This document shows positions 41 through 41,937 of a stretch of DNA of 64,000 nt, in pieces; positions within the stretch are counted from its first letter, which is position 1, and every line of letters begins with the position of its first letter. Source of the stretch: a virus; the IMG/VR virus record IMGVR_UViG_3300042945_001689, positions 44,125 to 108,124 of that record, one strand, 5' to 3'. Both the position numbers and the translations under genes were made by a program. Below the pieces are notes generated by a model. The model had not been told where the DNA came from. It was given only the letters and a program-made list of their open reading frames with translations, and searched no databases.

Positions 41-757
41 TTATTTTTTTCTTTTATCATTTGTTTTTAATCTAATTGTTTTTAATTCATGCTTTCCTAC
101 AGGAATATCTGATTCGTCTGTAGCATTTCTGTAAAAGTGTGTCCACTCACCAACTCTATTTTTTAATTGAGACACCTCTCCATATTTTTTATTTTTAATT
201 TCATCTTCTTTAGAAAAAACATAATCATTAATATCTAATTCATATTGGTTTATGTTTTGTAAAGATATTGGAACAATAGCAGCAATAGGAGTTTTTGCTG
301 GAATTGTTATAACAACATTTGGTTTTGTAACTTTGGCTGCTAGTGGCAATGGATATCTAAAAAAAGAAGTAGAAATAAGTGTTGTGTATAAATGAATTCC
401 ATCAATAAATAGATTTGGAACTGGCATTGTTAACAAAGTTGTATTTTCATCAGTAATAAATTTAGTAAATGTATCAAAACTTAGCGTTGCACTTCTTCTA
501 TTTTCATTGACATATTTGTTACCAGATAGGATAGTTATATGACCATCCTCTTTATCTGTATCAATTCCGTCCCAAATAAAACTAATATCTTCATCAAAAC
601 TAATTCCCCAACCTAATGTATTTGAAATTGATAACGGAAAACAATGATATGCGTGTGCATTTGACACATTGTCCATCCAATCTCTTTTAGCAGAAATTTG
701 AGAGATGTTTACACCAGAATTTGGCATCATGTATGCATTAAAAACTTTATTAGTCAT
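41..757 (-). CDS. DUF6065-like protein (paralog of 11982..12701)
   Basis: KRDWMD..HAYHCFPLSISNTLGW motif shared with 11982..12701; start moved to ATG 757, which overlaps the upstream stop. Confidence 0.6.
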   Translation of the reverse strand: MTNKVFNAYMMPNSGVNISQISAKRDWMDNVSNAHAYHCFPLSISNTLGWGISFDEDISFIWDGIDTDKEDGHITILSGNKYVNENRRSATLSFDTFTKFITDENTTLLTMPVPNLFIDGIHLYTTLISTSFFRYPLPLAAKVTKPNVVITIPAKTPIAAIVPISLQNINQYELDINDYVFSKEDEIKNKKYGEVSQLKNRVGEWTHFYRNATDESDIPVGKHELKTIRLKTNDKRKK

Positions 758-1430
758 TTGTTTCTTCATGAAGGTCTGGCCTATGATATTTTGCGCTATA
801 ATCAAGCATTGTTACTAACGAATATTTTGTTCCAGATACCACTGGCATTGCTGTATGAGGATACATATAGTTTGATGGAAAAATATATAAATCACCTGCC
901 TGTGGTTTAACTTTTATTCCTTGTAGTCTAAAATCCAACTCTCCACCTTCGTAATCATCATTTAAATATCCTACTAAAGAAACTACACAGTTATATGTAG
1001 GACCTTGATCATGATGCTCTTGAAAATGTTGTCCTGGACCATATTTTATAAAATTAAATGATTCCCAGTATCTTAGTTCTCCAACACGAAAAAAATGAGA
1101 GTAGTCTTTAACTGCTGGAAGTTGTAAGTCATAACAGTCCTGCCAGACTTCTTGCAGCAAAACTGATTGAACGCTTTTATCATTCAGTAAATTTTCTTTT
1201 CTATATTTAAAATCAACACAGTCTCTATATTCTGGAATTTTTTGGGCATATCCAACTAAAGCCTCTCTCCAAAAATAATTTGGATTTTTGCCTGTTAGAC
1301 TATTTTCTAGTCTACTAATTATTTTCATGTCTTTTTTAAATACATTTCTATAAACTGCTATTCCATCTGCAAGTAATTCTTTACTATCCCAAGTTGGATT
1401 TTCAACAACATTTGGTTCAAAATTAATCAT
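750..1430 (-). CDS. 2OG-Fe(II) oxygenase, prolyl 4-hydroxylase-like
   Basis: HHD, YLNDDYEGGEL, distal H and GTKY motifs. Confidence 0.9.
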   Translation of the reverse strand: MINFEPNVVENPTWDSKELLADGIAVYRNVFKKDMKIISRLENSLTGKNPNYFWREALVGYAQKIPEYRDCVDFKYRKENLLNDKSVQSVLLQEVWQDCYDLQLPAVKDYSHFFRVGELRYWESFNFIKYGPGQHFQEHHDQGPTYNCVVSLVGYLNDDYEGGELDFRLQGIKVKPQAGDLYIFPSNYMYPHTAMPVVSGTKYSLVTMLDYSAKYHRPDLHEETND

Positions 1431-2161
1431 TGTTGCCTTTCTGTGTAAGTATACTTATGTCCCAATTCATTAATATCTGTCATAATAACAATACAATATT
1501 TTGTTCCATTAACCATGTCCATTGACGCATGCTCATAAATATAATTAGATGGAAAAATTGCTATATCACCAAACTTTGGTTTATAAACTAAGTTGTCTAG
1601 CCTTGGAAAAAATAATTCTCCGCCTTCATAATCATCATTTAAATAAATTACAACAGAAACTGTTGTATTATATGCTGGACCGTGATCTGCATGAATTCTA
1701 AATTGCTGTCCTACACCTTCATACTTTACAAAATTAAATGCTTCATAATAGACCACATTAATTCCCCAATAACGAGCATAGTCATCAACACATAATTTTA
1801 AAGTATTGTAAATTTCTTCATACATATCAATTAATTCAGCATTTTGCTCATCTCTTGCTCCCAGAGAATAAGGATTATACTTAAAATCAGAGCAGTTTCT
1901 AGCATACTTTATTGGTTGATCTGAGTTTGTAACTTTTGCTTCATTCCACTTATACCTTGTTTGTCCATTTAAATTATTTTCTAATATACTTAAATATTTT
2001 TCACAATTTTCTTTTGAAATTGCATTATTATAGATATTTAAACCTAATCCTGGATTGCTTACTTTAATATTATTAAAAGTTTTGTCTGGCATTCTAAAAG
2101 ATGCAGATTCTGACCTATCTTTTGTAAACCAAGGATTTTGTGATTCATTTACTTCAATCAT
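1427..2161 (-). CDS. 2OG-Fe(II) oxygenase, prolyl 4-hydroxylase-like
   Basis: HAD, YLNDDYEGGELFF, HAS..GTKY. Confidence 0.9.
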   Translation of the reverse strand: MIEVNESQNPWFTKDRSESASFRMPDKTFNNIKVSNPGLGLNIYNNAISKENCEKYLSILENNLNGQTRYKWNEAKVTNSDQPIKYARNCSDFKYNPYSLGARDEQNAELIDMYEEIYNTLKLCVDDYARYWGINVVYYEAFNFVKYEGVGQQFRIHADHGPAYNTTVSVVIYLNDDYEGGELFFPRLDNLVYKPKFGDIAIFPSNYIYEHASMDMVNGTKYCIVIMTDINELGHKYTYTERQQ

Positions 2162-2219
2162 TAGCGAGTCTCCTTTATTTAATTATAGCATAAGAATTAT
2201 TTAAAGGAGACTGCGCTTT

Positions 2220-3524
2220 TTATTCAATACTTTGATCTCTTGTGTCATATACTAACATATTTTCTGTAAAGAAGTTGTCGTATGGTTCACAGTTAATCGA
2301 ATATACTGTTTCTTCATAATTTAGAACGTCTAATGAATCAATATTGACAAACCCTAACTCTTCATATGAATATACCATATATGTGTCATCAATTGAATCA
2401 ATTCTTAAGAATTTTGAAACATTATCTTTTTTAGTTAAAATATAATGCGTTTCAGAATATGCATCGCCGTTAAGAAGATATACTTTATCTACTTGCTTTG
2501 ATGATACTGCATAAACTGTAGTTTCTCTTAAATTGGTTTCATTTAGGATTAAGTCTTCTGCTGTCCAATTTAACCAATCAGCGTTATGTGCTGAGGCTTG
2601 TTCTGGAAGTTCCATAGCAATTAAAACATCTCCTACAACTATGTCTTTGGCTTCTTTTCTGCCATTGGTAGTCATGATGCCTGTATTGCTGGCAATGGAA
2701 TACTCTGAGAATCCAAACCCTGGGAAAAATGGTCCGAATGGTGGTGGGAATGGTGGTGGGAATGGTGGTGGGAATGGTGGTGGGAATGGTGGTGGGAATG
2801 GTGGTGGTGCGAAACTTGGGAAGAACGGAAAGAACGGGAAGAATGGGAAAAATGGGAAGAATGGGAAGAATGGTGAAAGTGTAGTAACGCTAGAAGTTGT
2901 TGCTCCTAATGATGCTCCATTAGCATTTGTTGCAGTAACAGTGTAAGTCTGTGAAGTTCCTGCTGTATCAGCAATAGTTGATGATGTTGCTGATGATGCT
3001 AAATCTCCAGAAGAAGTTCCGTCAGAACCAGTAACGTTATGCTTAGATAAAGCCTTTCCACCAGTGGCACCAATTGTCCAACTGATTGTGTTTTGGTTAA
3101 CACCAGCACTGGCGACCGCACCTTGAGGCGCTTGTGGAACTGTTGTTGCAGTTACTGAAGAAGAAGTTGTTCCGCTTGCAGTTCCTGCAGCGTTTGTTCC
3201 TTTTACTGTAAATGTGTATGAAGTATTTGATGCTAATCCCTGAAAAGTATAAGAAGGAGTGGAAGAGCCAGTATTTACTTCGTAAGTTGAGGGGGTTGTT
3301 GTAATGATATAAGCAGTTGCTGCTGGAGATCCCGCTGGCAATGTCCAAGTAAGGCTTACTGCTCCACCTGTGCCTGCTGCAGATGCTGCTGAAGTAGTAT
3401 TAGCAGTAGCAAGATAAGGACGAGATGTTCCTACATCTGTACCACTTAAGGAAGTAACATTATCTGGTTGCAAAAAGTTGTCTTGTGCTGAAGACTTGAT
3501 ACCTCTTTTTTTACTAACTGCCAT
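2220..3524 (-). CDS. FN3-domain virion/fibre protein with (PFF)6-(PPPF)6 tract and C-terminal Hint (intein-like) domain
   Basis: FN3-like LTW..P / YTFTVKGTNAAG; Hint block A SIASNTGIMTTNG..KDIVVGD, block B SETH, block F/G VYSINCEPYDNFFTENMLVYD. Confidence 0.75.
   Translation of the reverse strand: MAVSKKRGIKSSAQDNFLQPDNVTSLSGTDVGTSRPYLATANTTSAASAAGTGGAVSLTWTLPAGSPAATAYIITTTPSTYEVNTGSSTPSYTFQGLASNTSYTFTVKGTNAAGTASGTTSSSVTATTVPQAPQGAVASAGVNQNTISWTIGATGGKALSKHNVTGSDGTSSGDLASSATSSTIADTAGTSQTYTVTATNANGASLGATTSSVTTLSPFFPFFPFFPFFPFFPFFPSFAPPPFPPPFPPPFPPPFPPPFPPPFGPFFPGFGFSEYSIASNTGIMTTNGRKEAKDIVVGDVLIAMELPEQASAHNADWLNWTAEDLILNETNLRETTVYAVSSKQVDKVYLLNGDAYSETHYILTKKDNVSKFLRIDSIDDTYMVYSYEELGFVNIDSLDVLNYEETVYSINCEPYDNFFTENMLVYDTRDQSIE
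2736..2873 (-). repeat. Coding tandem repeats: 6 x 12 bp (PPPF) and 6 x 9 bp (PFF)
   Basis: gaatggtggtgg x6 and gaagaa(c/t)gg-type x6 read directly on + strand. Confidence 0.95.
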
Positions 3525-3555
3525 TTTTACTCCTCTTTTCTATTATATCAAACTA

Positions 3556-5499
3556 TTATGCTTTTAAATCTCCCATTACAACCCAAAGATTTGCTGCTCT
3601 CTTAAATAATGTTGCTGATGACCATTGTGCACGAAGTTTTAATCCAGGAGTTGCATTTACTGTTGTTGTTCCTGGTGTTACTGCTTCAATTGTCACTTCG
3701 CCAGTATTTGTTCGAAGAATATCAATTGATGTTCCGACTGGATAATTAAGTGTAGCATCTGTTGGGATTAAAACCTTAACTGCAGTTCCACCTGTATGTG
3801 AAACTTCAATTAATGAGTCTCTTTCATTTGCTGCTGAAAGGGTGTATTCTGCTGTCTTCTGAATAATTGATGTCCGTGATGGAACACCTTCTTTTGTTTG
3901 TGTACCGTCGGTAAAAATAAATCCACCAGCAGTTGTACTAATAACTGAAGTTCCGTTTACTTTAAGATCTTTTCCTGAAGCAAGGTTGATATGCTCGGAA
4001 GATGTCCAAGAATCTGTAGAATCTACCCAGTTAAAGGTTTTGTCTGTTGCGCCTTTAAGTGTAATACCTCCGCCATCTGCAGTTGTATCAGTAGGAGTTC
4101 CTGTATCTCCAAGAACAATGTTTTTGTCTTCAATAACAAGGTTAGTTGAGTTAAGGTTTGTTGTAGTTCCATTAATCGTTAAGTTTCCAGAAAGAGTTAA
4201 GTCTGTTCCAGAAACGGCTCCTGTAAATGTTGCTCCAGTAAGAGAAGCCTTAGCGTCTAACTGTGTTTGAATGGCTGAAGTTACCCCATCAACGTAGTTA
4301 AGTTCTGTAGTTGATGTGGTTACACCATCAAGAATGTTAAGTTCTGCTGCTGTAGAAGTAATAGAACTTCCAGCAATCTGTAAAGTTGTGGCGTTTACTT
4401 CGCCTGCAGAGCCATAAATAACTGCTTTGCTATTTGCAATAGTTCCTGCTGATGATCCATCTACTAAGTTAAGTTCTGCTGCTGTAGAAGTAATAGAAGT
4501 GCCAGCAATTTGTAAAGTTGTAGCATTTACTTGGCCTGCTGGACCATAAATTACTGCCTTGCTATCTACAATTGTTCCAGCAATAGATCCATCTATTAAA
4601 TTAACTTCTGATGCTGTTGCAGTGACATCTGTTGCACCTGCTGAAAGAACATGTGTATGACCTGTTCCTGCTTTTCCATCAATCTGTCCTTGAATTCCAG
4701 CAGAAACTCCTTCTAGGTACCCTATTTCTGTTGAAGATAGATCTCCAATTGATGTGGTACTTGGAAGAGTTACTGTTCCAGTAAATGTAGGACCTGCTAG
4801 TGCTGCTTTAGCATCTAACTGAGTTTGAATTGCTGAGGTTACACCATTAAGATAACTAATTTCAGTATTTGATACATCTGCAACAACTGCTTGCTTATTG
4901 TCTAATTGTGTTTGAATTGCTGAAGTAACACCAGCAAGATATCCTAATTCTGTTGATGTTGCACCAGTTGCACTAAGGTTTCCTGTTGTAACAACAGTTC
5001 CGCTTACGTTTGGAAATGTAATAGTTCTATCGGCTGTAGGATCTGTTACTGTTAAAGTGGTTTCATAATCGTTTGCTGTAGTACCTTCAAAAACAATTCC
5101 TGTTGTAGCATTAATTGTTGTGCTGTTAATAGTAGTGGTTGTACCACTTACTGTTAAATCTCCTGAAACGGTAACGTTTCCACTACCATCGGACAAAACA
5201 ACTGTGCCTGTTGCATCTGGAAATGTAATTGTACGGTCTGCTGTAGGATCTGTTACGGCAAGAGTTGTTTCAAATGCGTTGTCTGTAGCACCTTCAAATG
5301 TAATGCTTGAACCAAATGATGGGTTTACTGTAGAGGATTGGTCAATAAAGTAGTCAATATTTGCCCAGTGGTTAGTGCCATCACCGATCTTAAACTTATT
5401 AGTGTCTGATTCCCATCCGATTTCACCAGCATTTAGTATTGGGTTTGCTGATGTCCATTGTGCTGCAGTACCTCTGCGTTGCTGCATTCTTGTTGCCAT
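3556..5499 (-). CDS. Tail fibre protein with Mtd-N-like N-terminal domain
   Basis: MQQRRGTAAQW..NPIL..GEIGWESDTNKFKIGDG; internal GVTSAIQTQLD repeats; C-terminal domain shared with 14890..15690. Confidence 0.8.
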   Translation of the reverse strand: MATRMQQRRGTAAQWTSANPILNAGEIGWESDTNKFKIGDGTNHWANIDYFIDQSSTVNPSFGSSITFEGATDNAFETTLAVTDPTADRTITFPDATGTVVLSDGSGNVTVSGDLTVSGTTTTINSTTINATTGIVFEGTTANDYETTLTVTDPTADRTITFPNVSGTVVTTGNLSATGATSTELGYLAGVTSAIQTQLDNKQAVVADVSNTEISYLNGVTSAIQTQLDAKAALAGPTFTGTVTLPSTTSIGDLSSTEIGYLEGVSAGIQGQIDGKAGTGHTHVLSAGATDVTATASEVNLIDGSIAGTIVDSKAVIYGPAGQVNATTLQIAGTSITSTAAELNLVDGSSAGTIANSKAVIYGSAGEVNATTLQIAGSSITSTAAELNILDGVTTSTTELNYVDGVTSAIQTQLDAKASLTGATFTGAVSGTDLTLSGNLTINGTTTNLNSTNLVIEDKNIVLGDTGTPTDTTADGGGITLKGATDKTFNWVDSTDSWTSSEHINLASGKDLKVNGTSVISTTAGGFIFTDGTQTKEGVPSRTSIIQKTAEYTLSAANERDSLIEVSHTGGTAVKVLIPTDATLNYPVGTSIDILRTNTGEVTIEAVTPGTTTVNATPGLKLRAQWSSATLFKRAANLWVVMGDLKA

Positions 5500-5547
5500 A
5501 TTATTTTCCTCCTACAGAAAATTTCTTATTTTTATTATAACAGATAA

Positions 5548-6006
5548 TTAATTAAAGTTATCTGTTGCAACTCCTCCATCATAGGTATTTTCCCATGATG
5601 AAGTGCTATAGTCTCCTGCGCTTACTAGAACACCTGGTTCATTATAAGCACCTCCAGAAACAAATGTACTTACAATAAGACCAGATCCATCAATTGCGGT
5701 ATTGTGAATGTGGTCTTGTAATACTTCTGCATCTTCAAGAGTTGCAATTGCTACCCATTGAGATCCATAATAAACATGAACTCTTTCTGTTAATGTGTCA
5801 AACCAAAGATTTCCATTTGATGGAGAATTTGGTGCTGTTCCGCTAACAGTTACTCCTGCACTACCCGCAACACTATCAACATATGCTTTTGTTGCTGCAT
5901 GTGTATTTTGAGTTGGAGTGGCAACTGTAACCGTTGATCCGAAAGTACCGCCATCGGCTACGACTAAGCCATGTTTTACCTTAAAATCTCTGTTTACAGT
6001 TGCCAT
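5548..6006 (-). CDS. Minor tail/fibre-associated protein
   Basis: N-terminus like 6019..7845; HAATKAYVD and GNLWFDT fibre motifs. Confidence 0.6.
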   Translation of the reverse strand: MATVNRDFKVKHGLVVADGGTFGSTVTVATPTQNTHAATKAYVDSVAGSAGVTVSGTAPNSPSNGNLWFDTLTERVHVYYGSQWVAIATLEDAEVLQDHIHNTAIDGSGLIVSTFVSGGAYNEPGVLVSAGDYSTSSWENTYDGGVATDNFN

Positions 6007-6018
6007 TTAATCTCCTTT

Positions 6019-7845
6019 TTATGCCTCTATGTATGTCTTTGAAACCTTAACAGAAGTATCTGCTGCTGCTGCAGTAACTTGAAGAAGAACATTTCCACCG
6101 CTATAAACAGCATTTGTTGTTCCAAGTTCTGTATTGCTTATAACATTAGCATACTCTGTTACATAAACATTATTGTCACCATCTATAGCAACAAGCATTT
6201 CAATTACTTCAATGTTGCCAGACTTTTTCATCTGAATAACATACTTAGCAGCAGAATATGTTGTTGCTGAGAATGTATCAATTGTTGTTGCTGAAGTGCC
6301 AGCAGTTGCTGTTGCAGATCCAACAAGAGCATCTGGTAGAGCAAGGCTAGTACCTGTTGCTGCTCCAAGTTCTGGAGTTACAAGAGTTGGTGTATTAGCA
6401 AATACCAGTGCACCAGTTCCTGTTTCATCAGTTACTGCTGAAGCAAGGTTTGCTGAAGAAGGGGTTCCCAAAAATGTTGCAACACCTGCTGCCAAACCAG
6501 AAACATCATTTGCAATTCTTACTGTAAGTGTATTGTTTGCACCGCTGATTGTCTTGTTTGTAAGAGTTTCGGCTGCATCTTTAAGTGATGTTCCATTAAC
6601 CTTAAATTCTTTTCCTGAAGCAAGGTTTAAGTGTTCAGATGAGGTCCATGCATCAGTTGCATCTACCCATGAGAAAGTCTTGTCTGTAGCACCCTTAAGA
6701 GTAATACCACCACCATCAGCACCTGCATCTGTTGGAGATGTTACTGCACCAAGTGTAAGGTTCTTGTCATCAACTGTGATTTCTGTTGAGTTAATTGTAG
6801 TTGTTGTACCGTTAACTGTTAGGTCCCCTGAAAGAACCAAAGATGTACCAGTTGCTGCACCAATGTTTGGTGTTACGAGTGTTGGTGTATTAGCAAAAAC
6901 AAGTGCTCCAGTACCAGTCTCGTCTGAAATAATTCCAGCGAGTTCTGATGAAGATGTTGCTGCAAGTACGTTTAACTTATCTGTTGTTACAACAAGAGTC
7001 TTTGTGTTTGGAATAGTTGTACCATTGATAGAATCAGCAGTAGCAACACCAAGTGCTGGAGTTGTAAGTGTTGGGCTTGTAAGTGTCTTATTTGTAAGTG
7101 TCTGTGTGTTAGTTGTTCCAACTACCGCACCAGTTGCACCATGTGCTTCTGTAAGGTTGCCATGAGTTGTAAGATCTGAAGAAGTAGCCTTAGCATCCAA
7201 CTGAGTCTGGATTGCTGAAGTTACGCCATCTACGTAGTTAAGTTCTGTAGCGGTTGCAGTAAGTGATGTACCAGCAATTTGTAGAGTTGTAGCATTTACT
7301 TCTCCTGCTGCTCCATAAATAACTGCCTTACCATTTGCAATAGTCCCTGCAGATGATCCATCTACTAAGTTGAGTTCAGAAGCACTTGCAGTCAAATCCG
7401 AAACATTTGCTACTTGAACTGTAACTGTGTTGTTTGTATAAGAAATTGTTTTGTTGCTTAATGTTTGTGTTGCATCATTAAGTGTTACAGTGCCTGTAGC
7501 GTTTGGAAGTGTGATAGTACGATCTGCTGTTGGATCTGCTACTTCAAGAATTGTCTCATAGTCATCTGCTGTTGCACCTTCAAATGAAATTGAAGAACCA
7601 AATACACCAACGGCTGCTGGGGCTGACCACTCAACTCCGTATGTTGCACTTGAATTTGCTGTGAGGACCTGTCCGTTTGTACCAATGGCTAAACGTGCTA
7701 CTGCATCATCTGCACTACCAACAATTAAGTCACCCTTAGCATCTACGGTTCCTGCGGTAAGAACATTCTTACCATTAACGGTTGCTGTTGATCCTTCAAC
7801 AACTAATCCCGATTTTACTCTAAAATCTTTATTTACTGTTGCCAT
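6019..7845 (-). CDS. Tail fibre / virion structural protein
   Basis: Thr/Ala/Gly-rich, TLTNKT repeats, blocks shared with 3556..5499. Confidence 0.75.
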   Translation of the reverse strand: MATVNKDFRVKSGLVVEGSTATVNGKNVLTAGTVDAKGDLIVGSADDAVARLAIGTNGQVLTANSSATYGVEWSAPAAVGVFGSSISFEGATADDYETILEVADPTADRTITLPNATGTVTLNDATQTLSNKTISYTNNTVTVQVANVSDLTASASELNLVDGSSAGTIANGKAVIYGAAGEVNATTLQIAGTSLTATATELNYVDGVTSAIQTQLDAKATSSDLTTHGNLTEAHGATGAVVGTTNTQTLTNKTLTSPTLTTPALGVATADSINGTTIPNTKTLVVTTDKLNVLAATSSSELAGIISDETGTGALVFANTPTLVTPNIGAATGTSLVLSGDLTVNGTTTTINSTEITVDDKNLTLGAVTSPTDAGADGGGITLKGATDKTFSWVDATDAWTSSEHLNLASGKEFKVNGTSLKDAAETLTNKTISGANNTLTVRIANDVSGLAAGVATFLGTPSSANLASAVTDETGTGALVFANTPTLVTPELGAATGTSLALPDALVGSATATAGTSATTIDTFSATTYSAAKYVIQMKKSGNIEVIEMLVAIDGDNNVYVTEYANVISNTELGTTNAVYSGGNVLLQVTAAAADTSVKVSKTYIEA

Positions 7846-7858
7846 TTTTTATCTCCTT

Positions 7859-8305
7859 TTATGCCTTTAATCCTATACGTGCATAACGTACGGTTATAGG
7901 TGTTGTACCGACTACTGGAGTAACCGTTAAGGATACTGTATTTCCAGCGCGGGAGACGCTTATGGTGCCAATATTCCCATCGTTGTCTATAGTTCCATAT
8001 TCACTAACGCTAACATCTGTACCGTCAATTAATATGTTAATCTCTGTGGCGTAATATTTATTAGCGCCTCCAGAAGTATGTTTGATTGAGATTAGGTATT
8101 TAACCATTCTCCATTCTGTTGCGTTAAAATTATCAACTACCGTAGAACTTTCAATTCCGTTAATTGTTGATTCATTATTACCAGTAGTTCCTAAGTCTGT
8201 GGCTTGGGCTGATGTTGAGTCAATTAAATCTTCATAATCTTGCTGAGTAGGACGATCTCCTGTTTGAAACAAGGCCTTGACTGATGCTAATGATATTTTT
8301 GCCAT
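7859..8305 (-). CDS. Virion structural protein
   Basis: C-terminal half homologous to the C-terminal domain of 6019..7845 (KY.I..K...IDG....V.EY). Confidence 0.6.
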   Translation of the reverse strand: MAKISLASVKALFQTGDRPTQQDYEDLIDSTSAQATDLGTTGNNESTINGIESSTVVDNFNATEWRMVKYLISIKHTSGGANKYYATEINILIDGTDVSVSEYGTIDNDGNIGTISVSRAGNTVSLTVTPVVGTTPITVRYARIGLKA

Positions 8306-8345
8306 ACCTAGATTATAACATAATTATTTTAATAGTTTTATAATT

Positions 8346-8573
8346 TTATAAAATATAGTTGCTTACACCAATCATTTGTAAGGGAATTGGTGGCGCATTA
8401 TTAGCGTTAAAGGCTATAATATCTATATCAGTTATTCTTACTCTAAATGGTAAAAATTCATTTATTGTTATCCCTCTGTCAATCTTTTCTTCAATAGAAA
8501 CTTTAGGAAATGTGTGTTGATCAATTGATTTTAATATTGTTGTTTGTTTATCAAATATTGCAACAGAAGCCAT
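8346..8573 (-). CDS. Hypothetical protein (tail module)
   Basis: 75 aa, start overlaps stop of 8573..8974. Confidence 0.6.
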   Translation of the reverse strand: MASVAIFDKQTTILKSIDQHTFPKVSIEEKIDRGITINEFLPFRVRITDIDIIAFNANNAPPIPLQMIGVSNYIL

Positions 8574-8974
8574 TAACTTGTTACGTCTTCTAAAACAACC
8601 ATTTGACCTCTAGCAACTGTCCAAACTCGTGTTGCATCAGATAGTTGAACATCAAAAACATCTCCAGTTTTTAATTGTGCTGACTGTACAGATGTTAATT
8701 TAACTGTAAATTCTCCAGTTTCATCTCCCGCGTCTGGGGCAGGCGTTATTGTAAATACTGTACCAGCAGAATCTTGATCAAAATTATTTTCTATATCTGG
8801 TCTTCTAAATCTTGCAGCAATTGTCCAGTTGGCTATTACAAGTGGATTTTTAGCATCATCTGTAACATATATCCTAAATGCAACGGTATCTCCCTTTACA
8901 ATTGTCCATTTTACTAATGGCGGGGCATCACCAATATCATAAACAGATTGTCCAGCACCTCTATAATTAGCCAT
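8573..8974 (-). CDS. BppU-N-like baseplate/fibre adaptor protein
   Basis: W.IVKGDT motif; paralog of 16265..16654 and 17499..17885. Confidence 0.5.
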   Translation of the reverse strand: MANYRGAGQSVYDIGDAPPLVKWTIVKGDTVAFRIYVTDDAKNPLVIANWTIAARFRRPDIENNFDQDSAGTVFTITPAPDAGDETGEFTVKLTSVQSAQLKTGDVFDVQLSDATRVWTVARGQMVVLEDVTS

Positions 8975-9091
8975 ATAAGAATTATAACATAATTACAAGA
9001 ATATGTAAAAAGTTGACAAAAAACAAAACTTCATGTTATACTGGTAGGTAACACCATAAAAAATGGTGTTTTGTTTTCTAAGGAGGAAACT

Positions 9092-9658
9092 ATGATTAAA
9101 TTTATCGAAAGAAACAAAGAGGTCATTAGTATACTCGGCATACTGACTTTAGTAACGACATTGTCAAACGTTGCTAATGCTGAAACACGAATAAGTGACA
9201 AAAATAATTTGAGTATAGAACAGGCTCAGGAGCAGGAAAACGCCTCGAAAGAGGTTTTTTTGGTTTCTAAAGAAGAAAATAATAAAATTAACAAAAAATA
9301 CAAATATGGAACCCCCCTTGAAAAAGACGAACTAATTAAAATATTAAAGCAAGTAGGCTTTAAAGGATATTCACTAAAGGTTGCTTGGGCAACGGTAATG
9401 AAAGAATCTATGGGCACTCCTAACTCTTGGAATCCTAATAGACAGACTGGAGATAATTCTTATGGCCTATTTCAAATCAATATGCTTGGAGGACTGGGCG
9501 AAGAAAGAAGAAGCAAGTTTAATCTAAAGTCTAACGAAGATCTGTTTGATCCAGTTAGAAATGCAGAAATCGCTTATCATATGAGTAATGGTGGTGAAGA
9601 TTGGTCTGCCTGGAAAGGCATTACCTGGAAAACTAAAGAGTGGATGGAAAGATATTAA
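9092..9658 (+). CDS. Lysozyme-like / lytic transglycosylase with N-terminal signal/TM segment
   Basis: catalytic ES, DNSYGLFQINM, DWSAW motifs; AGGAGG SD before ATG 9092. Confidence 0.8.
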   Translation: MIKFIERNKEVISILGILTLVTTLSNVANAETRISDKNNLSIEQAQEQENASKEVFLVSKEENNKINKKYKYGTPLEKDELIKILKQVGFKGYSLKVAWATVMKESMGTPNSWNPNRQTGDNSYGLFQINMLGGLGEERRSKFNLKSNEDLFDPVRNAEIAYHMSNGGEDWSAWKGITWKTKEWMERY

Positions 9659-10659
9659 TTTTTAATATCTTGTATTATCTCTAAAAATCCTTCTGCCCAA
9701 TGCATATGTTTATGAACTCCACTATGCCTTGCCTTTTTTGAATAATACTTTTCATCTTCTATGTCTGTTGATGTATCAAAATTTTTTGGATACAAATGTC
9801 TTAAATGTTCGTGTTTATTACATTCGTCTAAATATACATCAAGTCCATCATCACTTTTGTACCATCTATTAGACTTTAAATAAACAAAATTATTTGATAC
9901 ATTTTCTTGTTGTGTTATTAAGTCATACAAAAAACCACTCCACGTTGACCATAAAAATAAAATTTTTGCTTCTTTACAATACTGCTCTAACATTTTAATA
10001 TATTGATATGAGTAAAAAAATGGTAAATCTGGAGAAAAAACATCTTCAGAATAATGTGGTTTTTTAGAATATTTTTCTGATTCTTGATAAATTACGTGAG
10101 TTGAAGACAACATACTCTCTGGATGTACTGGAAAATAAGTATTTTTTGTTATTAATGTTTCAGTATTTACTGGAACCATAAATCTATAAAAATCTGGAAA
10201 CAAACATAAAAGAGTTTTTGGATGACCATATTCTTCAAAATATTTATATATATTATTTATAATTGCAACAACAGAGTCTCCTGGTTGACTTATATTTGAA
10301 TACTTTACATTTAAAGCCTTTGCTACTTGACTGCCCCATATTTCTTTTTCTGGCAATCCCAACCCAAATGTAAAAGAACAGCCACCAAAAACAAGTTCAT
10401 TGTTTTCATTAAAATCTTTTCCTCTAAAACCTAAATTATTTATAATATATGAATTAGACTGGTCCAATAAAAATTCTGTTTCTGTATAATGTCCCGTCCA
10501 TAGCAAACCATTTGGATACAAACCTGGTTTTCTTTTATTTGTAATAATCCAATCATTTAAAAATAAATGTTTAACATTTTCATGATCAACTACATCATTT
10601 CCAATTAAACCTAAGTCACTTATAGTTTCTTTTATAGTTTTAGTATATGTATTTTTCAT
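9655..10659 (-). CDS. Hypothetical SGNH-like protein (paralog of 49728..50606)
   Basis: NNLGFR...GCSFTFGLG motif. Confidence 0.5.
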   Translation of the reverse strand: MKNTYTKTIKETISDLGLIGNDVVDHENVKHLFLNDWIITNKRKPGLYPNGLLWTGHYTETEFLLDQSNSYIINNLGFRGKDFNENNELVFGGCSFTFGLGLPEKEIWGSQVAKALNVKYSNISQPGDSVVAIINNIYKYFEEYGHPKTLLCLFPDFYRFMVPVNTETLITKNTYFPVHPESMLSSTHVIYQESEKYSKKPHYSEDVFSPDLPFFYSYQYIKMLEQYCKEAKILFLWSTWSGFLYDLITQQENVSNNFVYLKSNRWYKSDDGLDVYLDECNKHEHLRHLYPKNFDTSTDIEDEKYYSKKARHSGVHKHMHWAEGFLEIIQDIKN

Positions 10660-10709
10660 ATTTTTTATCCTTTTTTTTAAATATTTTTTTAAATTTATAC
10701 AAATAATAT

Positions 10710-11300
10710 TTAATTTTTATTAACATATTTATTTCTAATTTCATTTTCAAATATTCTGTATTTAGTTGGAATCCAAAAAGATGGTGTGGTATATCTTGTG
10801 CCTTTTGTTATCTCCCGCACACCGTGTATATACATTGTGTTTGATGGGAAAAATACCAATGTACCAGCACTAGGTTTAAAGTCTAAGTTATGATCTGGGA
10901 AGTATATCTCTCCGCCTTCGTAGTCATCGTTCAAATATATAACAGCCCCATAGTCAACTATAAATGCTTCATTTGGATGTCCTTCTGGATCTTCTCCATC
11001 TGCATGTAGTGGTTGAAACTCTCCTGCGTCCCATCTTCTTATTCCAGCAGAATTTGTTTCAAGAGGTCTTCCAAAATAAAGTTCTATCTCTTGCTGTACT
11101 CTATCAATTGCTTTTTTTAGTATGGCATGGGCCTCTGGCTTTTCAGAAGCAAGATTTCTTGTTACTTTGTCTGGTATTCCAGCCATTGAATTAGAACCCC
11201 AAGAAATTGTATCGTCTATTGATGATAATACAATGTCTAAATCTTTCTTTGAAACAAAATTTTCTTTTATAACAATATTTTTTGTAGATCCTATTTTCAT
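10710..11300 (-). CDS. 2OG-Fe(II) oxygenase, prolyl 4-hydroxylase-like
   Basis: HAD, YLNDDYEGGEIYF, HGV..GTRY. Confidence 0.9.
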   Translation of the reverse strand: MKIGSTKNIVIKENFVSKKDLDIVLSSIDDTISWGSNSMAGIPDKVTRNLASEKPEAHAILKKAIDRVQQEIELYFGRPLETNSAGIRRWDAGEFQPLHADGEDPEGHPNEAFIVDYGAVIYLNDDYEGGEIYFPDHNLDFKPSAGTLVFFPSNTMYIHGVREITKGTRYTTPSFWIPTKYRIFENEIRNKYVNKN

Positions 11301-11309
11301 TTTTTCTCC

Positions 11310-11468
11310 TTAATTAGGTAACTCTGATTGCTCTGCTATTTCTTTTACTTTGTCAAAGTTTGATGCATCAACCATTGAAGATAAAACATAACATATCCAT
11401 TGATAAGATGACTTTTCGCAATACCCCTTTGACTGCATAATTTTAGCAATATCTTCTATAATTTCCAT
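11310..11468 (-). CDS. Small hypothetical protein (52 aa)
   Basis: hand-translated MEIIEDIAK..ELPN*; fills gap, start overlaps upstream stop. Confidence 0.55.
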   Translation of the reverse strand: MEIIEDIAKIMQSKGYCEKSSYQWICYVLSSMVDASNFDKVKEIAEQSELPN

Positions 11469-11989
11469 TACTTATACTCCAAAAATATGTTAATTGCATA
11501 TCTTGTTCCAGAATGAACCTGATGCGCTATGTGCATATATGGGTAGTTTGATGGAAATAATACCATAGAATTTTTTACTGGCTTAACTTTAATGTCAAAG
11601 TTGCAAAATTCTATCTCTCCGCCTTCGTAGTCATCGTTTAAATATATAACGCAACTAGTAACTCTGTTAGAAACATGCTTTGAGCCATCATCATAGTGCA
11701 TTACATACTTTTCTCCAGGCTCGTATTTTAATGCCTCTATTGTAAGATATGTTAGTTCTGGAAGAAAATATAAATCACGATATGCACTTAAAGAACTATG
11801 CAGCGCCTCATCTATAATTTTAAAAATTTCTTTTTGCAACTCTTTGTCTTGAAAGTATATGACTGAATTAGATCTATCTTCTGTTTTTACATTTAGTGGT
11901 TTTGTCCACTCATACTTATTAATTTCTTTAATTAATAAATCTGAATTATTCAAAACATTATAATAAAACTCTATTCCGTTTTTATTCAT
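11468..11989 (-). CDS. 2OG-Fe(II) oxygenase, prolyl 4-hydroxylase-like
   Basis: HYD, YLNDDYEGGE, HIA..GTRY. Confidence 0.9.
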   Translation of the reverse strand: MNKNGIEFYYNVLNNSDLLIKEINKYEWTKPLNVKTEDRSNSVIYFQDKELQKEIFKIIDEALHSSLSAYRDLYFLPELTYLTIEALKYEPGEKYVMHYDDGSKHVSNRVTSCVIYLNDDYEGGEIEFCNFDIKVKPVKNSMVLFPSNYPYMHIAHQVHSGTRYAINIFLEYK

Positions 11990-12701
11990 TTTTTTTCCTT
12001 ATGTCTTTGGTATGCAACTTTATTTTTTTTACTTCGTGTGATCCAACAGAATTGCCAAATTGATCAGTAGCGCTTCGATAAAAATCAGAAAACTTTGGAA
12101 TTTTATTATTTTCTAATATTACATTTCCATAGTCTGTTACTTTTTTATGGTATTCATTAATATTATGTGGATTATTATTTAAAGTAATTGTAGAATTTTG
12201 TAAATTTGTTAAAGATATTGGCAAAACAGAAATAATTGGAGAGTTTGCTTTAAACGTAATAACAGTGTTTGGCCTTGTAATTTTCCAAGATACTGGTATA
12301 GGTTTTTGCCAAAAACTAGAACTAATTAAGTTTGTTAACGGAACTGCGCCATCAATGTCTAAATTTGGTGGACCAAAAAACAATAAACTAGTTTCTGGAT
12401 TTGTTTCAAAAAACCAACCTATATTAAAAATTAGTGTTGCAGTTCCTCTGTTAGTGTCAACAAATTCTTTACCTTTTAAAACCGTTATGTGATTTCCTTC
12501 AGAAGAGTCGTTTCCATCCCAAACAACAGAAATATCTTTGGGGAATGAAAATCCCCATCCCATTTGATTTGTTAACGATAAAGGAAAACACCTGTATGCA
12601 TGTTGATCAAATGTTTTATCCATCCAGTCTCTTTTTAAAGAAAGTTGTTCTATTCTTGCACCTAAACCTGGATTTACTTCATATGCATTGATTTCATACA
12701 T
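11982..12701 (-). CDS. DUF6065-like protein
   Basis: KRDWMD..HAYRCFPLSLTNQMGW; paralog of 41..757. Confidence 0.6.
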   Translation of the reverse strand: MYEINAYEVNPGLGARIEQLSLKRDWMDKTFDQHAYRCFPLSLTNQMGWGFSFPKDISVVWDGNDSSEGNHITVLKGKEFVDTNRGTATLIFNIGWFFETNPETSLLFFGPPNLDIDGAVPLTNLISSSFWQKPIPVSWKITRPNTVITFKANSPIISVLPISLTNLQNSTITLNNNPHNINEYHKKVTDYGNVILENNKIPKFSDFYRSATDQFGNSVGSHEVKKIKLHTKDIRKKNE

Positions 12702-13364
12702 TTATTGTTTTTGCCTTAGTGGAGAGTTTGCTCCGTGTACCCTATCATTATAGTCAAACATTGTTACTGCAGAATATTTTATTCCTTCTTTTACAGGCAA
12801 AGCAGCATGAGAATATAAAAAGTTTGATGGGAACAAAACAATATCTCCCTCTTCTGGAGTATAAGTATAGTTTATGTATGGGAAAAACAATTCTCCTCCA
12901 GTATAGTTGTCATTTAAATACATAACTGTAGAAACAGTACATACATAACTAAAACCATGATCTGAATGAACCTGAAAGTGTTGATCTTTTCCATATCTAA
13001 CAAAATTAACTGCTTCTTGATACTCTAAGTTTAAATTAAAAAGTGAAGAATAATGTTTTACACATTCCTGTAGTCGTTCATCTATGTCAAAGTATATTTT
13101 TCTTAAATCTGACATAGTTGCTCTTGGGTTATTTACAAAATCATTTTTTCTTACTTTAAAGTCTACGCAATCTCTATAATCTTTTCTTGTTTCATAATCA
13201 CCAACTTGTGCTTCGCTCCATTTGAAAAAATTATCGCCATGTTTTTCAATAACATCTTCAAGTCGCTGAACAAGATTTAAGTCTTTATTAAGCGCATTTT
13301 TATAAACGAATACAGCAGGCGCAGGATTTTCTATAGTGGTTGTTTCTATAAAGTTAGATAACAT
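12702..13364 (-). CDS. 2OG-Fe(II) oxygenase, prolyl 4-hydroxylase-like
   Basis: HSD, YLNDNYTGGEL, HAA..GIKY; close paralog of 750..1430 (YRDCVDFK). Confidence 0.9.
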   Translation of the reverse strand: MLSNFIETTTIENPAPAVFVYKNALNKDLNLVQRLEDVIEKHGDNFFKWSEAQVGDYETRKDYRDCVDFKVRKNDFVNNPRATMSDLRKIYFDIDERLQECVKHYSSLFNLNLEYQEAVNFVRYGKDQHFQVHSDHGFSYVCTVSTVMYLNDNYTGGELFFPYINYTYTPEEGDIVLFPSNFLYSHAALPVKEGIKYSAVTMFDYNDRVHGANSPLRQKQ

Positions 13365-13403
13365 TTAATCTCCTTTTTGGTCAATATATAGTATACTACA
13401 TAT

Positions 13404-13988
13404 ATGGACAATATGTATAAGGTACAACCTGGCTATTTTGGGGACTCTGTTGATAATATCATTGTTTTAGAAAATTTTATAAGTCCAGATGACTTAGATA
13501 AATTTTACTTTTACTCTAAATCAATAGAAAATTTTTTATCCATACCTGATGACAACTGGGACAACAGGGTTCATAGTTCAGAGTTATTTAAAAATAGTAA
13601 TAAGGCATTATTTCTTAAACTTTTAGAATATCAAAAAAAATTAAAAATAGAAATAGAAAAAAGATTTAACTTTGTTTTACAAGAAAATTCACCATCAATA
13701 GTTCTTTGGAGACCTGGAGACGATCAGCCTCCTCATGCAGACAAACAGGAGCAAGATGGTAATCCAAATTCTTATCCTGAAAATGATGTGGCATCCCTAA
13801 TGTATATAAACGACAATTATGATGGTGGAGAAATATACTTTACTAACCAGGATATAACCATAAAGCCCAAGGCTGGTTCTGCAATATTTTTTCCTGGAGA
13901 TATACATTATACTCATGGGGTAACAAAAGTATTAAATAACAACAGATATACATCGCCAGCATTTTGGCGTGTAAAAAACTTTAATTAA
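13404..13988 (+). CDS. 2OG-Fe(II) oxygenase, prolyl 4-hydroxylase-like
   Basis: HAD, YINDNYDGGE, HGV..RY; resembles 10710..11300. Confidence 0.9.
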   Translation: MDNMYKVQPGYFGDSVDNIIVLENFISPDDLDKFYFYSKSIENFLSIPDDNWDNRVHSSELFKNSNKALFLKLLEYQKKLKIEIEKRFNFVLQENSPSIVLWRPGDDQPPHADKQEQDGNPNSYPENDVASLMYINDNYDGGEIYFTNQDITIKPKAGSAIFFPGDIHYTHGVTKVLNNNRYTSPAFWRVKNFN

Positions 13989-14890
13989 ATATTATCCCTA
14001 ACATCAAAAACCAACATATTTTCTGTAAAGAAATTATCATATGGTTCGCAATTGATTGAATAAACCGTATCTTCATATTCTATAATATCGAACACTTCTA
14101 TTGGAACAAACTGTAGATCAGCAAAAGAGTATACAAAATATGAACTATCAATTTCTGATGTTTGTATAAATTTAACAACATTATCTTTTTTAGTTAAAAT
14201 ATAATGCGTTCCCGAATATGCATCTCCGTTAATTATATAAAGTGTACCGATAGGTCTTGAGGTAATAGAAACAACCTCTGTTTCTCTTAAATTGGTTTCA
14301 TCTAATAATAAATCTTCTTTACTCCAAGTTGTCCAATCAGAAACATTGTTGGTATCTAAATCCATAGCAACCAAAACGTCTCCTACTACAATATCTTTAG
14401 CGTCTTTTCTTCCATTAATAGTTATAATTCCAGTATTGCTTGCAATGGAATATTCTGAATAGACTCCAAACCCTGGGAAAAATGGTGGTATTGGGAACGG
14501 TGGTGGGAACGGTGGTGGGGCAACGGCGAACGGTGGTGGGAACGGTGGTGGGAACGGTGGTGGGAACGGTGGTGGTGCTGGGGCTACTGGAGTAACAGAA
14601 TTACTTGCTGCAGATTCTAACGATGTAGCAACACCATTTCCTAGTTTTACTTTAAATGTATAGGCTGTTCCATTTGACAAACCACTAACAGTTATTGGAG
14701 AAGTTGAAGATGTTCCTGTTATATCTGATGGAGTTGAAGTTGCAGTGTAAGTTGTTCCAATTGGTTTGCCTAAATAGGCTGGTGCTGTAAATGAAACTGT
14801 TGCTGTTTCATTACCTTCTGTTGCAGTTCCAATTGTTGGAGTTCCTGGTTGTATTCCTCCACTACCTGAAGATATTGGTGGTAATGGCAT
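13985..14890 (-). CDS. FN3-domain protein with (PPPF)n tract and C-terminal Hint domain (paralog of 2220..3524)
   Basis: FN3 (GLSNGTAYTFKV); PPPF x6; SEY-SIASNTGI..SGTH..VYSINCEPYDNFFTENMLVFD; start ATG 14890 in TAATG overlap. Confidence 0.75.
   Translation of the reverse strand: MPLPPISSGSGGIQPGTPTIGTATEGNETATVSFTAPAYLGKPIGTTYTATSTPSDITGTSSTSPITVSGLSNGTAYTFKVKLGNGVATSLESAASNSVTPVAPAPPPFPPPFPPPFPPPFAVAPPPFPPPFPIPPFFPGFGVYSEYSIASNTGIITINGRKDAKDIVVGDVLVAMDLDTNNVSDWTTWSKEDLLLDETNLRETEVVSITSRPIGTLYIINGDAYSGTHYILTKKDNVVKFIQTSEIDSSYFVYSFADLQFVPIEVFDIIEYEDTVYSINCEPYDNFFTENMLVFDVRDNI
14495..14575 (-). repeat. Coding 12-bp tandem repeats (PPPF x4 + x2)
   Basis: gaacggtggtgg units on + strand. Confidence 0.95.
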
Positions 14891-15690
14891 TATGCACTCA
14901 GATCGCCAATTGCAATCCAAGTATTGGTTGCTCGTTTAATTAATGTACAAGATGAATACTGTGTTCTTAATTTTGCTGCATTTGAAGAAACTTGAGGTGT
15001 GCAATTTAGTGTAACTCCTGCAGTGACTACTACTGTTGTTGCTCCAGTTCCAGTTTGAATAATTGTAATTTGTGAACCAATTGCAAATGCTTGAGTTGCA
15101 TTAAGTGGAATAGTAACTGTATTTGCAGTTGATGTTAAATTCATTTCAATAATTTTATATGCATCTGACAAAACCAATGCGTGATTTGCTGTTTTTTCTA
15201 AAATAGTAAAATCTAATGCAGATTTAGTATCTTGAACTGCTTTGACTGCAGTTGGTGTTGCTGCTTTAACTGATGAAGTCTCTGATGTTGAATCTGACAA
15301 TTGAACAACTCCAGGTGTTGAAACTGATGCTGCTGTAGGTGCAGCCCATTTAAGACCAAATGTGCCCTGTGTTGAGTCTGCAGTTAAAATATGTCCATCG
15401 CTACCAACTGTTAAATTATCTAAATTATTATTTGATGTCCCTACTAAAAGATCGCCTTTAGCGTCAATGACAGTTTCTTCTACAGCATTTGTTAAAGTTG
15501 CATCAATTGCATCAATTCTTGTATCTATATCATCTAGATACTTTGAAATACCTGCGGTTGCTGTGCCTTCTGGCTCTGCTTCTTGTCCCCAATGATAATA
15601 TTTAAGTGCAACCTGTATGTCGGCTGGATCAGCCATTGCTGGAATTTTTGCTAGGGGATACTTAGAACTTCCTATATTTGTGGCTGCCAT
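14890..15690 (-). CDS. Tail fibre protein
   Basis: GVVQLSDSTS..AATPTAVK fibre repeat; C-terminal domain shared with 3556..5499. Confidence 0.75.
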   Translation of the reverse strand: MAATNIGSSKYPLAKIPAMADPADIQVALKYYHWGQEAEPEGTATAGISKYLDDIDTRIDAIDATLTNAVEETVIDAKGDLLVGTSNNNLDNLTVGSDGHILTADSTQGTFGLKWAAPTAASVSTPGVVQLSDSTSETSSVKAATPTAVKAVQDTKSALDFTILEKTANHALVLSDAYKIIEMNLTSTANTVTIPLNATQAFAIGSQITIIQTGTGATTVVVTAGVTLNCTPQVSSNAAKLRTQYSSCTLIKRATNTWIAIGDLSA

Positions 15691-33987: not shown

Positions 33988-34021
33988 GGTGTTTACTGTT
34001 CTATTTACCGCCGAACTTTAA
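33988..34021. repeat. 34-bp direct repeat, left copy
   Basis: GGTGTTTacTGTTCTATTTACCGCCGAACTTTAA; 32/34 identical to 35127-35160. Confidence 0.9.
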
Positions 34022-37391: not shown

Positions 37392-37465
37392 GCACCAGTA
37401 GCCAAGTTGGTTAAGGCCCCGAACTCATAATTCGGTTATCGTAGGTTCAAGTCCTACCTGGTGTA
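37392..37465 (+). tRNA. tRNA-CAT (Ile2 or elongator Met)
   Basis: cloverleaf, CCGAA-CT-CAT-AA-TTCGG; C4/C5 in the acceptor stem hint at Ile2. Confidence 0.9.
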
Positions 37466-37469
37466 CTAA

Positions 37470-37543
37470 TGGTCTGTAGCACAATTGGCAGTTGCACTCG
37501 GCTGTTAACCGAGATGTTGTAGGTTCGAGTCCTACCAGACCAG
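37470..37543 (+). tRNA. tRNA-Asn(GTT)
   Basis: CTCGG-CT-GTT-AA-CCGAG; acceptor TGGTCTG/CAGACCA. Confidence 0.93.
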
Positions 37544-37546
37544 CAA

Positions 37547-37618: not shown

Positions 37619-37619
37619 C

Positions 37620-41935: not shown

Positions 41936-41937
41936 AA

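Follow-up and report, generated by a model that had tools for sequence, protein, structure and literature searches.

The window analysed here is a stretch of 64,000 nucleotides (64 kb) that forms the right-hand part of a 108-kb IMG/VR record (IMGVR_UViG_3300042945_001689) of an uncultured lake-type phage with an estimated completeness of 99%. It encodes two modules with a common layout: a tail fibre gene comes first, next comes the gene for a precursor protein that consists of a fibronectin type III (FN3) region, a tract of Pro/Phe repeats and a C-terminal domain with a predicted Hint fold, and a cassette of genes encoding prolyl 4-hydroxylase (P4H)-like 2-oxoglutarate (2OG)-Fe(II) oxygenases and a protein of the DUF6065 family comes last. 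The gene content of both modules was established from the listing of open reading frames (ORFs) together with Pfam matches, and all module genes are on the minus strand with the single exception of the gene for oxygenase B4. The features are as follows, in window coordinates unless otherwise stated.

Module A
3556-5499, minus strand: long tail fibre A, 647 aa; Mtd_N at the N-terminus and tail-fibre PHROGs, C-terminus matching phrog_8780 (minor tail protein)
3559-3909, minus strand: shared C-terminal domain of fibre A, ~115 aa, ending GDLKA; 40% identity to the C-terminus of fibre B
2220-3524, minus strand: precursor A, 434 aa, with FN3 region, tract and Hint domain; fn3 match and weak Intein_splicing match
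about 2700-2879, minus strand: tract of precursor A, (PFF)6-(PPPF)6
2220-2699, minus strand: Hint domain of precursor A, ~160 aa, first residue Ser276; 63% identity to the Hint domain of B
1427-2161, minus strand: P4H-like 2OG-Fe(II) oxygenase A2; PF13640 (2OG-FeII_Oxy_3), E 3e-12, HxD..H and K kept
750-1430, minus strand: P4H-like 2OG-Fe(II) oxygenase A1; PF13640, E 3e-15
41-805, minus strand: DUF6065 protein A; PF19541, E 1e-25, 46% identity to copy B
L002:638-1369 (genome 43434-44165, just left of window position 1), minus strand: gene X, 243 aa; phrog_7084, no Pfam match

Module B
14890-15690, minus strand: short tail fibre B, 266 aa; Phage_fiber_2 and PHROG tail-fibre matches
14893-15243, minus strand: shared C-terminal domain of fibre B, ending GDLSA, identified by alignment with fibre A
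13985-14920, minus strand: precursor B, 311 aa (301 from the likely ATG at 14890), with one FN3, tract and Hint domain, identified by Pfam
about 14450-14584, minus strand: tract of precursor B, (PPPF)n
13985-14449, minus strand: Hint domain of precursor B, first residue Ser148
13404-13988, plus strand: P4H-like oxygenase B4; PF13640, E 6e-10
12702-13364, minus strand: P4H-like oxygenase B3; PF13640, E 6e-13
11982-12701, minus strand: DUF6065 protein B; PF19541, E 5e-36
11468-11989, minus strand: P4H-like oxygenase B2; PF13640, E 8e-17
10710-11300, minus strand: P4H-like oxygenase B1; PF13640, E 2e-9

The likely start codon of precursor B (14890) overlaps the stop codon of fibre B as TAATG, and module A extends past the left edge of the window, where gene X encodes a distant relative of DUF6065. 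A first-pass annotation made from the sequence of the window had described this gene order as occurring twice and had called it a duplicated module. Both modules are present, and by sequence comparison the paralogy of their parts is far above chance: the Hint halves of precursors A and B are 63% identical (E 5e-75), the two DUF6065 proteins are 46% identical (E 3e-68), and the last ~108 residues of the two fibres, which otherwise differ, are 40% identical (E 6e-13). The term duplicated module nevertheless needs qualification. In a tree of Hint sequences the two copies of the window fall in separate sub-lineages, and the A/B duplication is therefore the old, conserved two-fibre layout of this phage group, which is also seen in the loci of relatives, and not a recent copy.

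The tract of precursor A has the order (PFF)6-PSFA-(PPPF)6-GPFFPGFGFSEY and is followed by the ~160-aa C-terminal domain; both tracts of the window finish with ..PFFPGFG(F/VY)SEY right before an invariant Ser. With 20 Pro in 30 residues, they are the most Pro-rich stretches among all ORFs of the 108-kb genome, followed at a distance by an out-of-frame ORF overlapping a real gene (14/30) and by the next plausibly coding frame (9/30), and six of the seven P4H-like oxygenases of the genome flank these two tracts. The earlier designation of the tracts as candidate substrates is in keeping with this ranking. Because neither (PFF)n nor (PPPF)n has the Gly at every third residue that is typical of collagen, a classical collagen helix is excluded for the tracts of the window, whereas (GAF)n repeats found in relatives would have such spacing. 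The 137-aa ORF at 2533-2946 on the plus strand is not a gene: its (GNGGGN)n and (GKN)n repeats simply arise from reading the PPPF/PFF tract in antisense. The next most Pro-rich plausibly coding sequences after the precursors are two large minus-strand ORFs without a PHROG match (58547-60694 and 55968-57260) that have PT-rich linkers (..PAPEPTPTPTPSPS.. and ..PTPTPSATSSPTPTPTP..) and are possible alternative oxygenase substrates.

Conservation of the fibre and repeat-Hint pair

We collected 78 related viral loci (cited here by their L numbers) in two scans of viral contigs and screened their ORFs with profiles of the window's own proteins. In all 47 unique cases for which upstream DNA is available, the gene directly upstream of the repeat-Hint gene encodes a fibre-like protein with the shared C-terminal domain; 40 of these fibres were called by profile and seven by their visible ending ..TPGLKFRT..GDLSA, and the C-terminal ending across the pairs is ..TPGLK[LF]R..GDLSA. 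A fibre gene followed by an FN3-repeat-Hint gene is the only arrangement that is constant across the 78 loci, and the oxygenases are accessory. Since the pairs of most relatives lack an oxygenase cassette, the first-pass view that the enzymes are integral to the fibre-Hint system is not borne out, and the cassette is better described as an accessory layer on a wider and older pair of fibre and repeat-Hint protein. Many relatives carry two such pairs ~4 kb apart, one consisting of a short fibre and a precursor with one FN3 and the other of a long fibre and a precursor with two FN3, and this layout is independent of the presence of oxygenases (L007, L037, L038, L059, L060/L076).

The segment preceding the Hint domain in relatives is always a short-period hydrophobic repeat, the composition of which varies freely. 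Repeat types among relatives include (GAF)n, (SPF/APF)n, (FTPFG)n, (FSPFGVFG)n, (HYAGFS)n, and (EPVIIIA)n, and those in the clade of the window phage are PFF, PPFF, PPPF, and PYF. In some relatives (L028:475-1536) the place after the short fibre gene is taken by a gene for a 353-aa Gly/Ser/Cys-rich protein that does not contain a Hint domain, and an oxygenase gene is still present ~700 nt beyond.

For the analysis of co-occurrence, two features of each unique Hint protein were scored: its Pro-richest 30-residue window, with a threshold of >= 0.3 for Pro-richness, and whether an oxygenase gene lies at most 1.5 kb downstream. Such an oxygenase gene follows 24 of the 26 Pro-rich Hint proteins compared with only one of the 30 others. 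Within the (GAF)n clade, the Hint genes with a single following oxygenase gene are those that encode an extra PT/PV-rich linker, as seen in the contrasts of L060 with L076 on the same contig, of L061/L075 with L083, and of L062 and L055/56 with L059 and L057. Adjacency to any match of the DUF6065 profile, distant ones such as X included, does not track with Pro-richness.

Hint domain, oxygenases, and DUF6065

An AlphaFold model of precursor B based on an alignment of 30 sequences has a mean predicted local distance difference test score (pLDDT) of 82. In it the FN3 domain comes first, the tract (residues 118-145) is modelled with low confidence, and the Hint part has a pLDDT of ~90. A Foldseek search with the modelled Hint domain returned BIL2 of the Tetrahymena BUBL locus (6y75) as the best match (E 1.6e-7, TMt 0.76) and also matched the BIL domain of Clostridium thermocellum (2lwy, TMt 0.80), the DnaB and gp41-1 mini-inteins, and Hedgehog (1at0). 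By this model, the C-terminal domain of the precursors has the BIL/intein/Hedgehog (Hint) fold. The Pfam model Intein_splicing scores below its cut-off in both precursors (22.9 and 17.0 bits vs 35.8), the curated model being too remote from this divergent Hint family; a profile search of the PDB gave marginal sequence matches in the right register, which place Ser1 opposite Cys1 of the gp41-1 intein. The Hint domain noticed in the first-pass annotation is thus present, with the residues for N-terminal cleavage retained: Ser1 and the block-B His are invariant in the 27-30 aligned sequences, which include proteins down to ~35% identity. The domain starts at ..SEY|SIASNTG in the window phage and at ..WGD|SLAVQT in other relatives. 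Conservation does not extend to the block-B Thr. The C-terminal motif SI[NH]CEPYDNFFTENMLv[FY]D, the counterpart of intein blocks F/G, is invariant or nearly so.

In this motif [FY]-Asp stands in place of the terminal His-Asn of inteins, and the stop codon comes after no more than 2-10 further residues, which are not conserved. The possibility that the domain is a splicing intein was considered and is excluded by this replacement and by the absence of a C-extein. The presence of Ser1 and the block-B His in the sequences fits N-terminal self-cleavage or transfer, and N-terminal cleavage of the precursors by their Hint domains is, in our estimation, probable. No Pfam or PHROG match to Peptidase_S74 was found in the precursors or the fibres.

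Searches of cultured phages with full-length precursor A (tblastn) and with 16 kb of DNA (megablast) gave no match, and homologs in jumbo phages were found only with the Hint domain alone at a relaxed E value. These homologs, in Dickeya phage AD1, Yersinia phage fHe-Yen9-02, and the Erwinia Yoloswag group, are 480-aa proteins annotated as virion structural proteins that have a C-terminal Hint domain and are encoded in the tail gene cluster. Their presence in cultured jumbo phages indicates that C-terminal Hint domains on repeat-bearing proteins of fibre modules are more widespread than the phage group of the window. No oxygenase is annotated within the 4-kb flanks that were inspected at the jumbo phage loci. 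The collagen-Hint genes of fHe-Yen9-02 (L084:2996-4438) and AD1 (L085:2990-4429) lend themselves readily to experiments on how Hint domains process fibre proteins.

All seven P4H-like paralogs of the genome match PF13640 above the cut-off, H139, D141, and H192 are invariant among them, and the distal Lys/Arg that binds 2OG is kept at the G-T-[KR]-Y position in all seven. A sequence search of the PDB with one paralog, B2, gave five matches at E <= 0.01, all of which are prolyl 4-hydroxylases, including those of Bacillus anthracis (3itq/5hv0) and Paramecium bursaria Chlorella virus 1 (PBCV-1; 5c5t) as well as 6iuq. The label P4H-like, already used in the first-pass annotation, appears fair on these grounds, and the substrate is not readable from the sequence. 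The seventh paralog is encoded far from both fibre modules at 37724-38386 on the plus strand, directly after four tRNA genes (Met, Asn, Glu, and Arg; 37392-37693).

DUF6065 proteins A and B score well above the cut-off of PF19541 (90.9 and 124.8 bits vs 26.6). A model of DUF6065 B built from 31 sequences (pLDDT 80) has a dUTPase-like beta fold with a C-terminal helix, and a candidate assignment as a cupin or oxygenase was rejected on the basis of this fold. The model matches dUTPase 1dun with a Z score of 10.5 in VIA (root mean square deviation 4.9, 120 aligned residues), nearly all of the 12 chains with Z>=8 are dUTPases, and Foldseek gave E 5e-4 to 3loj; sequence identity to the dUTPase structures is 5-12%. 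Strong DUF6065 matches lie inside oxygenase arrays at all Pro/Phe loci and at nine of nine extra loci, the latter being contigs of metagenome-assembled genomes that were identified in a scan of genome contigs and resemble mis-binned phage fragments with no bacterial context. A homolog search restricted to longer proteins revealed no DUF6065 fusions; fusions were pointed to by the ESM Atlas and confirmed with a representative protein library and Pfam, and five of the ten long DUF6065 homologs are fused to a C-terminal 2OG-FeII_Oxy_3 (PF13640) domain. Because DUF6065 is fused to oxygenases and other domains and is located in oxygenase arrays, it most likely serves modifying enzymes as a binding or adaptor domain, and either the tract or a small molecule may be its ligand.

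The distant relative X is linked to DUF6065 by profile comparison (hhalign 92%, E 7.6e-7), and its own profile matches no dUTPase by sequence in the PDB, where only marginal matches were obtained. X follows the Hint gene of the second module in most loci and never occurs in the first fibre module, and a highly conserved gene starts +29 to +106 nt after it, the N-terminus of which, read from the translation only, is ribonucleotide reductase (RNR)-like. Homologs of X are found in haloarchaeal myoviruses (HSTV-2, HF1, and the HCTV/HRTV series) and in three cyanophages, and a halovirus homolog is encoded beside thymidylate synthase and DNA polymerase. In view of these neighbours and of the absence of X from first modules, a reading in which X is dedicated to partnering the Hint protein was rejected; X probably belongs to the nucleotide module, and we do not count it as part of the system. 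X may be a nucleotide enzyme of the dUTPase superfamily. The oxygenase arrays are found on either side of X, in the orders FHooDX, FHXooD, and FHDXoo (F, fibre; H, Hint; o, oxygenase; D, DUF6065).

Between cassette B and a SLT_3 lysozyme-like gene (9071-9658, plus strand), the product of which has an N-terminal stretch that looks hydrophobic, there is a 334-aa ORF (9655-10659, minus strand) without a Pfam or PHROG match; in relatives without the cassette, the lysozyme gene directly follows the Hint gene of the short-fibre pair (L047). Typical auxiliary genes of aquatic phages encode a PstS-like phosphate-binding protein (34018-35061, minus strand) and a Nol-like carbamoyltransferase (54467-55918, minus strand), and the window contains six tRNA genes in total. 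A run of ORFs on the same strand (40230-44580, plus strand) includes at least two that match glycosyltransferase PHROGs (40230-41186 and 43537-44580). Hydroxyproline in plants and algae is commonly O-glycosylated, and a link between this run and the hydroxylase cassettes is possible.

Proposed maturation, its alternatives, and known systems

We propose that the fibre, with its shared C-terminal domain, and the FN3-repeat-Hint protein would form an obligate pair. Ser1 of the Hint domain would make an N-to-O acyl shift with the help of the block-B His, and the resulting ester would be resolved by water or by another nucleophile; the Hint domain would thereby be removed like a self-cleaving C-terminal propeptide, and the FN3-repeat protein would end in its repeat, either free or transferred to a partner. 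In the Pro/Phe clade, the repeat would have become composed of Pro and Phe only (PFF, PPFF, PPPF), and a P4H-like cassette with DUF6065 would have been recruited directly downstream. The enzymes of this cassette would most likely hydroxylate the prolines of the tract before or during assembly, and DUF6065 may be a non-catalytic binding or adaptor subunit. For the chain as a whole, from the pair through self-removal of the Hint domain to hydroxylation of the tract with DUF6065 as adaptor, we regard the case for and the case against as evenly matched. Because each polymer gene precedes a P4H-like cassette, the polymer ranks as the most likely target of enzymes that otherwise lack an explanation in phages, and its hydroxylation by the neighbouring enzymes, taken as a claim of its own, is a serious possibility that we would place slightly short of even. 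The processed product may associate with the fibre and might serve as an adhesive tip, as imagined in the first-pass annotation.

A number of observations weigh against hydroxylation of the tract by its neighbours. Most relatives have Gly/Ala/Phe or Ser/Pro/Phe tracts and no oxygenase cassette, and a need for up to nine paralogous enzymes to modify a two-letter polymer is unexplained. The state in which PFF/PPFF/PPPF tracts are combined with several oxygenases is essentially one clade on the Hint tree; there are four independent contrasts on this tree, and although all are concordant, four cannot reach significance (sign test p = 0.125). Gene position is a confounder because some contrasts pair a gene of the first module with a gene of the second. 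At L047 a PPFF tract is followed directly by a lysozyme gene with no oxygenase, and the (SPF/APF)n tracts of L007 and L010/L017 are one-third Pro and have no oxygenases; conversely, a single oxygenase gene is found where the short fibre precedes the non-Hint Gly/Ser/Cys-rich protein (L028) and another after a gene that, as read from its translation, is RNR-like. The arrays are located where the structural module meets the nucleotide-metabolism module, a typical hot spot for insertions. DUF6065 is also fused once to a Stf0 sulfotransferase and once to an AraC-type helix-turn-helix (HTH), which would equally fit a domain that binds small molecules. The co-occurrence of Pro-rich tracts with adjacent oxygenases that had been suggested from the window therefore stands in the counts of the survey, but it comes from few independent events and has exceptions in both directions. 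Taken as a whole, the first-pass interpretation is partly supported. As for the independent occurrence of oxygenases and DUF6065, single oxygenases are found without Pro-rich neighbours, whereas strong DUF6065 matches are confined to oxygenase arrays.

In one alternative, the oxygenase and DUF6065 arrays are accessory genes that have piled up at a hyperplastic junction between fibre and nucleotide-metabolism genes and act on other targets, for instance a nucleotide, a host protein, or some small molecule, with shared descent alone accounting for the link to the tracts. Its main support is that the arrays flank X at the Hint|X|RNR junction, in several orders. In addition, a single clade accounts for most of the correlation, the fold of DUF6065 is dUTPase-like and thus of a nucleotide-binding type and has been joined to sulfotransferase and AraC-type HTH domains, single oxygenases occur without Pro-rich neighbours, and the seventh oxygenase (37724-38386) is remote from any fibre. 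Cassette B, however, is located elsewhere, between the short-fibre Hint gene and the lysozyme gene, and yet again directly downstream of a Pro-rich precursor; on one contig (L060/L076), the Hint gene with the Pro-rich linker has an oxygenase and the (GAF)n one does not; the four independent pairs all agree; the five solved structures matched at E <= 0.01 are all protein prolyl hydroxylases; and the genome encodes no other comparably Pro-rich protein. We consider this alternative somewhat unlikely.

Two further alternatives concern the fate of the Hint domain. It may be catalytically dead or be retained in the virion as a folded C-terminal knob that binds a receptor or caps a trimer, in which case the repeat would be an internal spacer. 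The presence of Ser instead of the canonical Cys1, the lack of conservation of the block-B Thr, the loss of the terminal His-Asn, and the annotation of the cultured-phage homologs as virion structural proteins agree with such a role, as does the conservation of the motif CEPYDNFFTENML beyond apparent catalytic need, which hints at a binding surface. Inteins with Ser1 and C-terminal Hint domains that cleave only N-terminally, such as those of Hedgehog and BIL proteins, are well established, however; Ser1 and the block-B His, both of which are needed for the N-O acyl shift, are invariant family-wide, and the closest structural matches are BIL domains. Retention of an uncleaved Hint domain thus appears unlikely to us. 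Alternatively, the ester might be resolved by a protein nucleophile so that the FN3-repeat protein becomes ligated through its new C-terminus to the C-terminal domain of the fibre or to another virion protein. BIL domains of BUBL loci conjugate their N-terminal cargo, namely ubiquitin-like domains, and BIL2 of the Tetrahymena BUBL locus is the best structural match of the phage domain; in addition, the pairing of fibre and Hint protein is universal, and the C-terminal domain of the fibre is conserved with invariant Lys/Arg positions. We regard such a ligation as improbable.

Few auxiliary metabolic genes in metagenomes of aquatic phages are as abundant as those for P4H-like 2OG-Fe(II) oxygenases, and the use of P4H by phages has been called cryptic (PMC9301287). 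A specific, phage-encoded candidate substrate that is adjacent in the genome makes the role of these orphan enzymes testable, and, if the proposed maturation by Hint cleavage and tract hydroxylation is correct, it would provide a substrate and a function for oxygenases that are presently booked as metabolic genes. Similarly, the universal pair of fibre and FN3-repeat-Hint protein, with its relatives in cultured jumbo phages, points to unstudied Hint autoprocessing in virion assembly, and DUF6065, a family of unknown function, gains a predicted fold and a working hypothesis as an adaptor of modifying enzymes.

In our literature search we found no description of the combined system or of the fibre and repeat-Hint pair, none of DUF6065, and no analysis of the jumbo phage collagen-Hint proteins, virion proteomics of AD1 included, in agreement with the first-pass annotation, which had not recognised the system as a described one. 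Its parts are of known kinds, namely Hint autoprocessing and a viral P4H that acts together with viral Pro-rich repeats, and it is their combination for which no description was found. According to Eriksson et al. (1999), as cited in PMC9301287, the P4H of PBCV-1 acts on PBCV-1's own Pro-rich repeats. The two systems share a virus-encoded P4H-type oxygenase and Pro-rich repeats of the same virus, and the PBCV-1 enzyme (5c5t) ranks with the nearest relatives of solved structure that the phage enzymes have. PBCV-1, however, is a giant virus of eukaryotes that has a single enzyme and repeats of the (PAPK) type, whereas the predicted system of the tailed phage has two to four paralogous enzymes per cassette (up to ~9 in relatives), DUF6065, tracts of Pro and Phe only, a Hint domain on the candidate substrate, and a tight linkage to fibre genes.

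The phage Hint domain resembles those of BIL and Hedgehog proteins in its modelled fold, its C-terminal placement, the nucleophile at position 1, the block-B His, and the lack of a splicing partner, and because of these features N-terminal cleavage or transfer is the chemistry to be expected. It differs from them in having Ser1 instead of Cys, a terminal [FY]D, no sterol-recognition region, a cargo composed of FN3 and a hydrophobic repeat, and a score below the Pfam cut-off. The collagen-Hint proteins of jumbo phages (Dickeya AD1 gp108, Yersinia fHe-Yen9-02 gp333c, and the Erwinia Yoloswag group) end in a Hint domain homologous to that of the window phage (E down to 2e-5 in tblastn; phrog_38766), which is likewise preceded by a repeat region and encoded within a tail/fibre cluster. 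In contrast to the window phage, they have the canonical Cys1 (GC|IVFGS), THEH (THEHP), and His-Asn (VLVHN) residues with no C-extein nucleophile, true Gly-X-Y repeats, and an Ig-like domain.

In the Peptidase_S74 chaperones of fibres and spikes and in the C-propeptide of procollagen, a C-terminal domain helps a repetitive fibre to assemble and is afterwards cleaved off at a conserved Ser, and in procollagen prolyl hydroxylation comes before maturation. A full procollagen-like maturation of the phage precursors, in which a repeat precursor with a Hint propeptide would, in one clade, be hydroxylated at its prolines by a dedicated battery of P4H-like enzymes brought in by a DUF6065 adaptor of dUTPase-like fold and then be cleaved by the Hint domain or ligated to the fibre to yield a modified and possibly adhesive appendage, is a rather doubtful extension of this comparison. 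The resemblance of the phage precursors to S74 chaperones and procollagen is a functional analogy between systems that differ in fold and chemistry.

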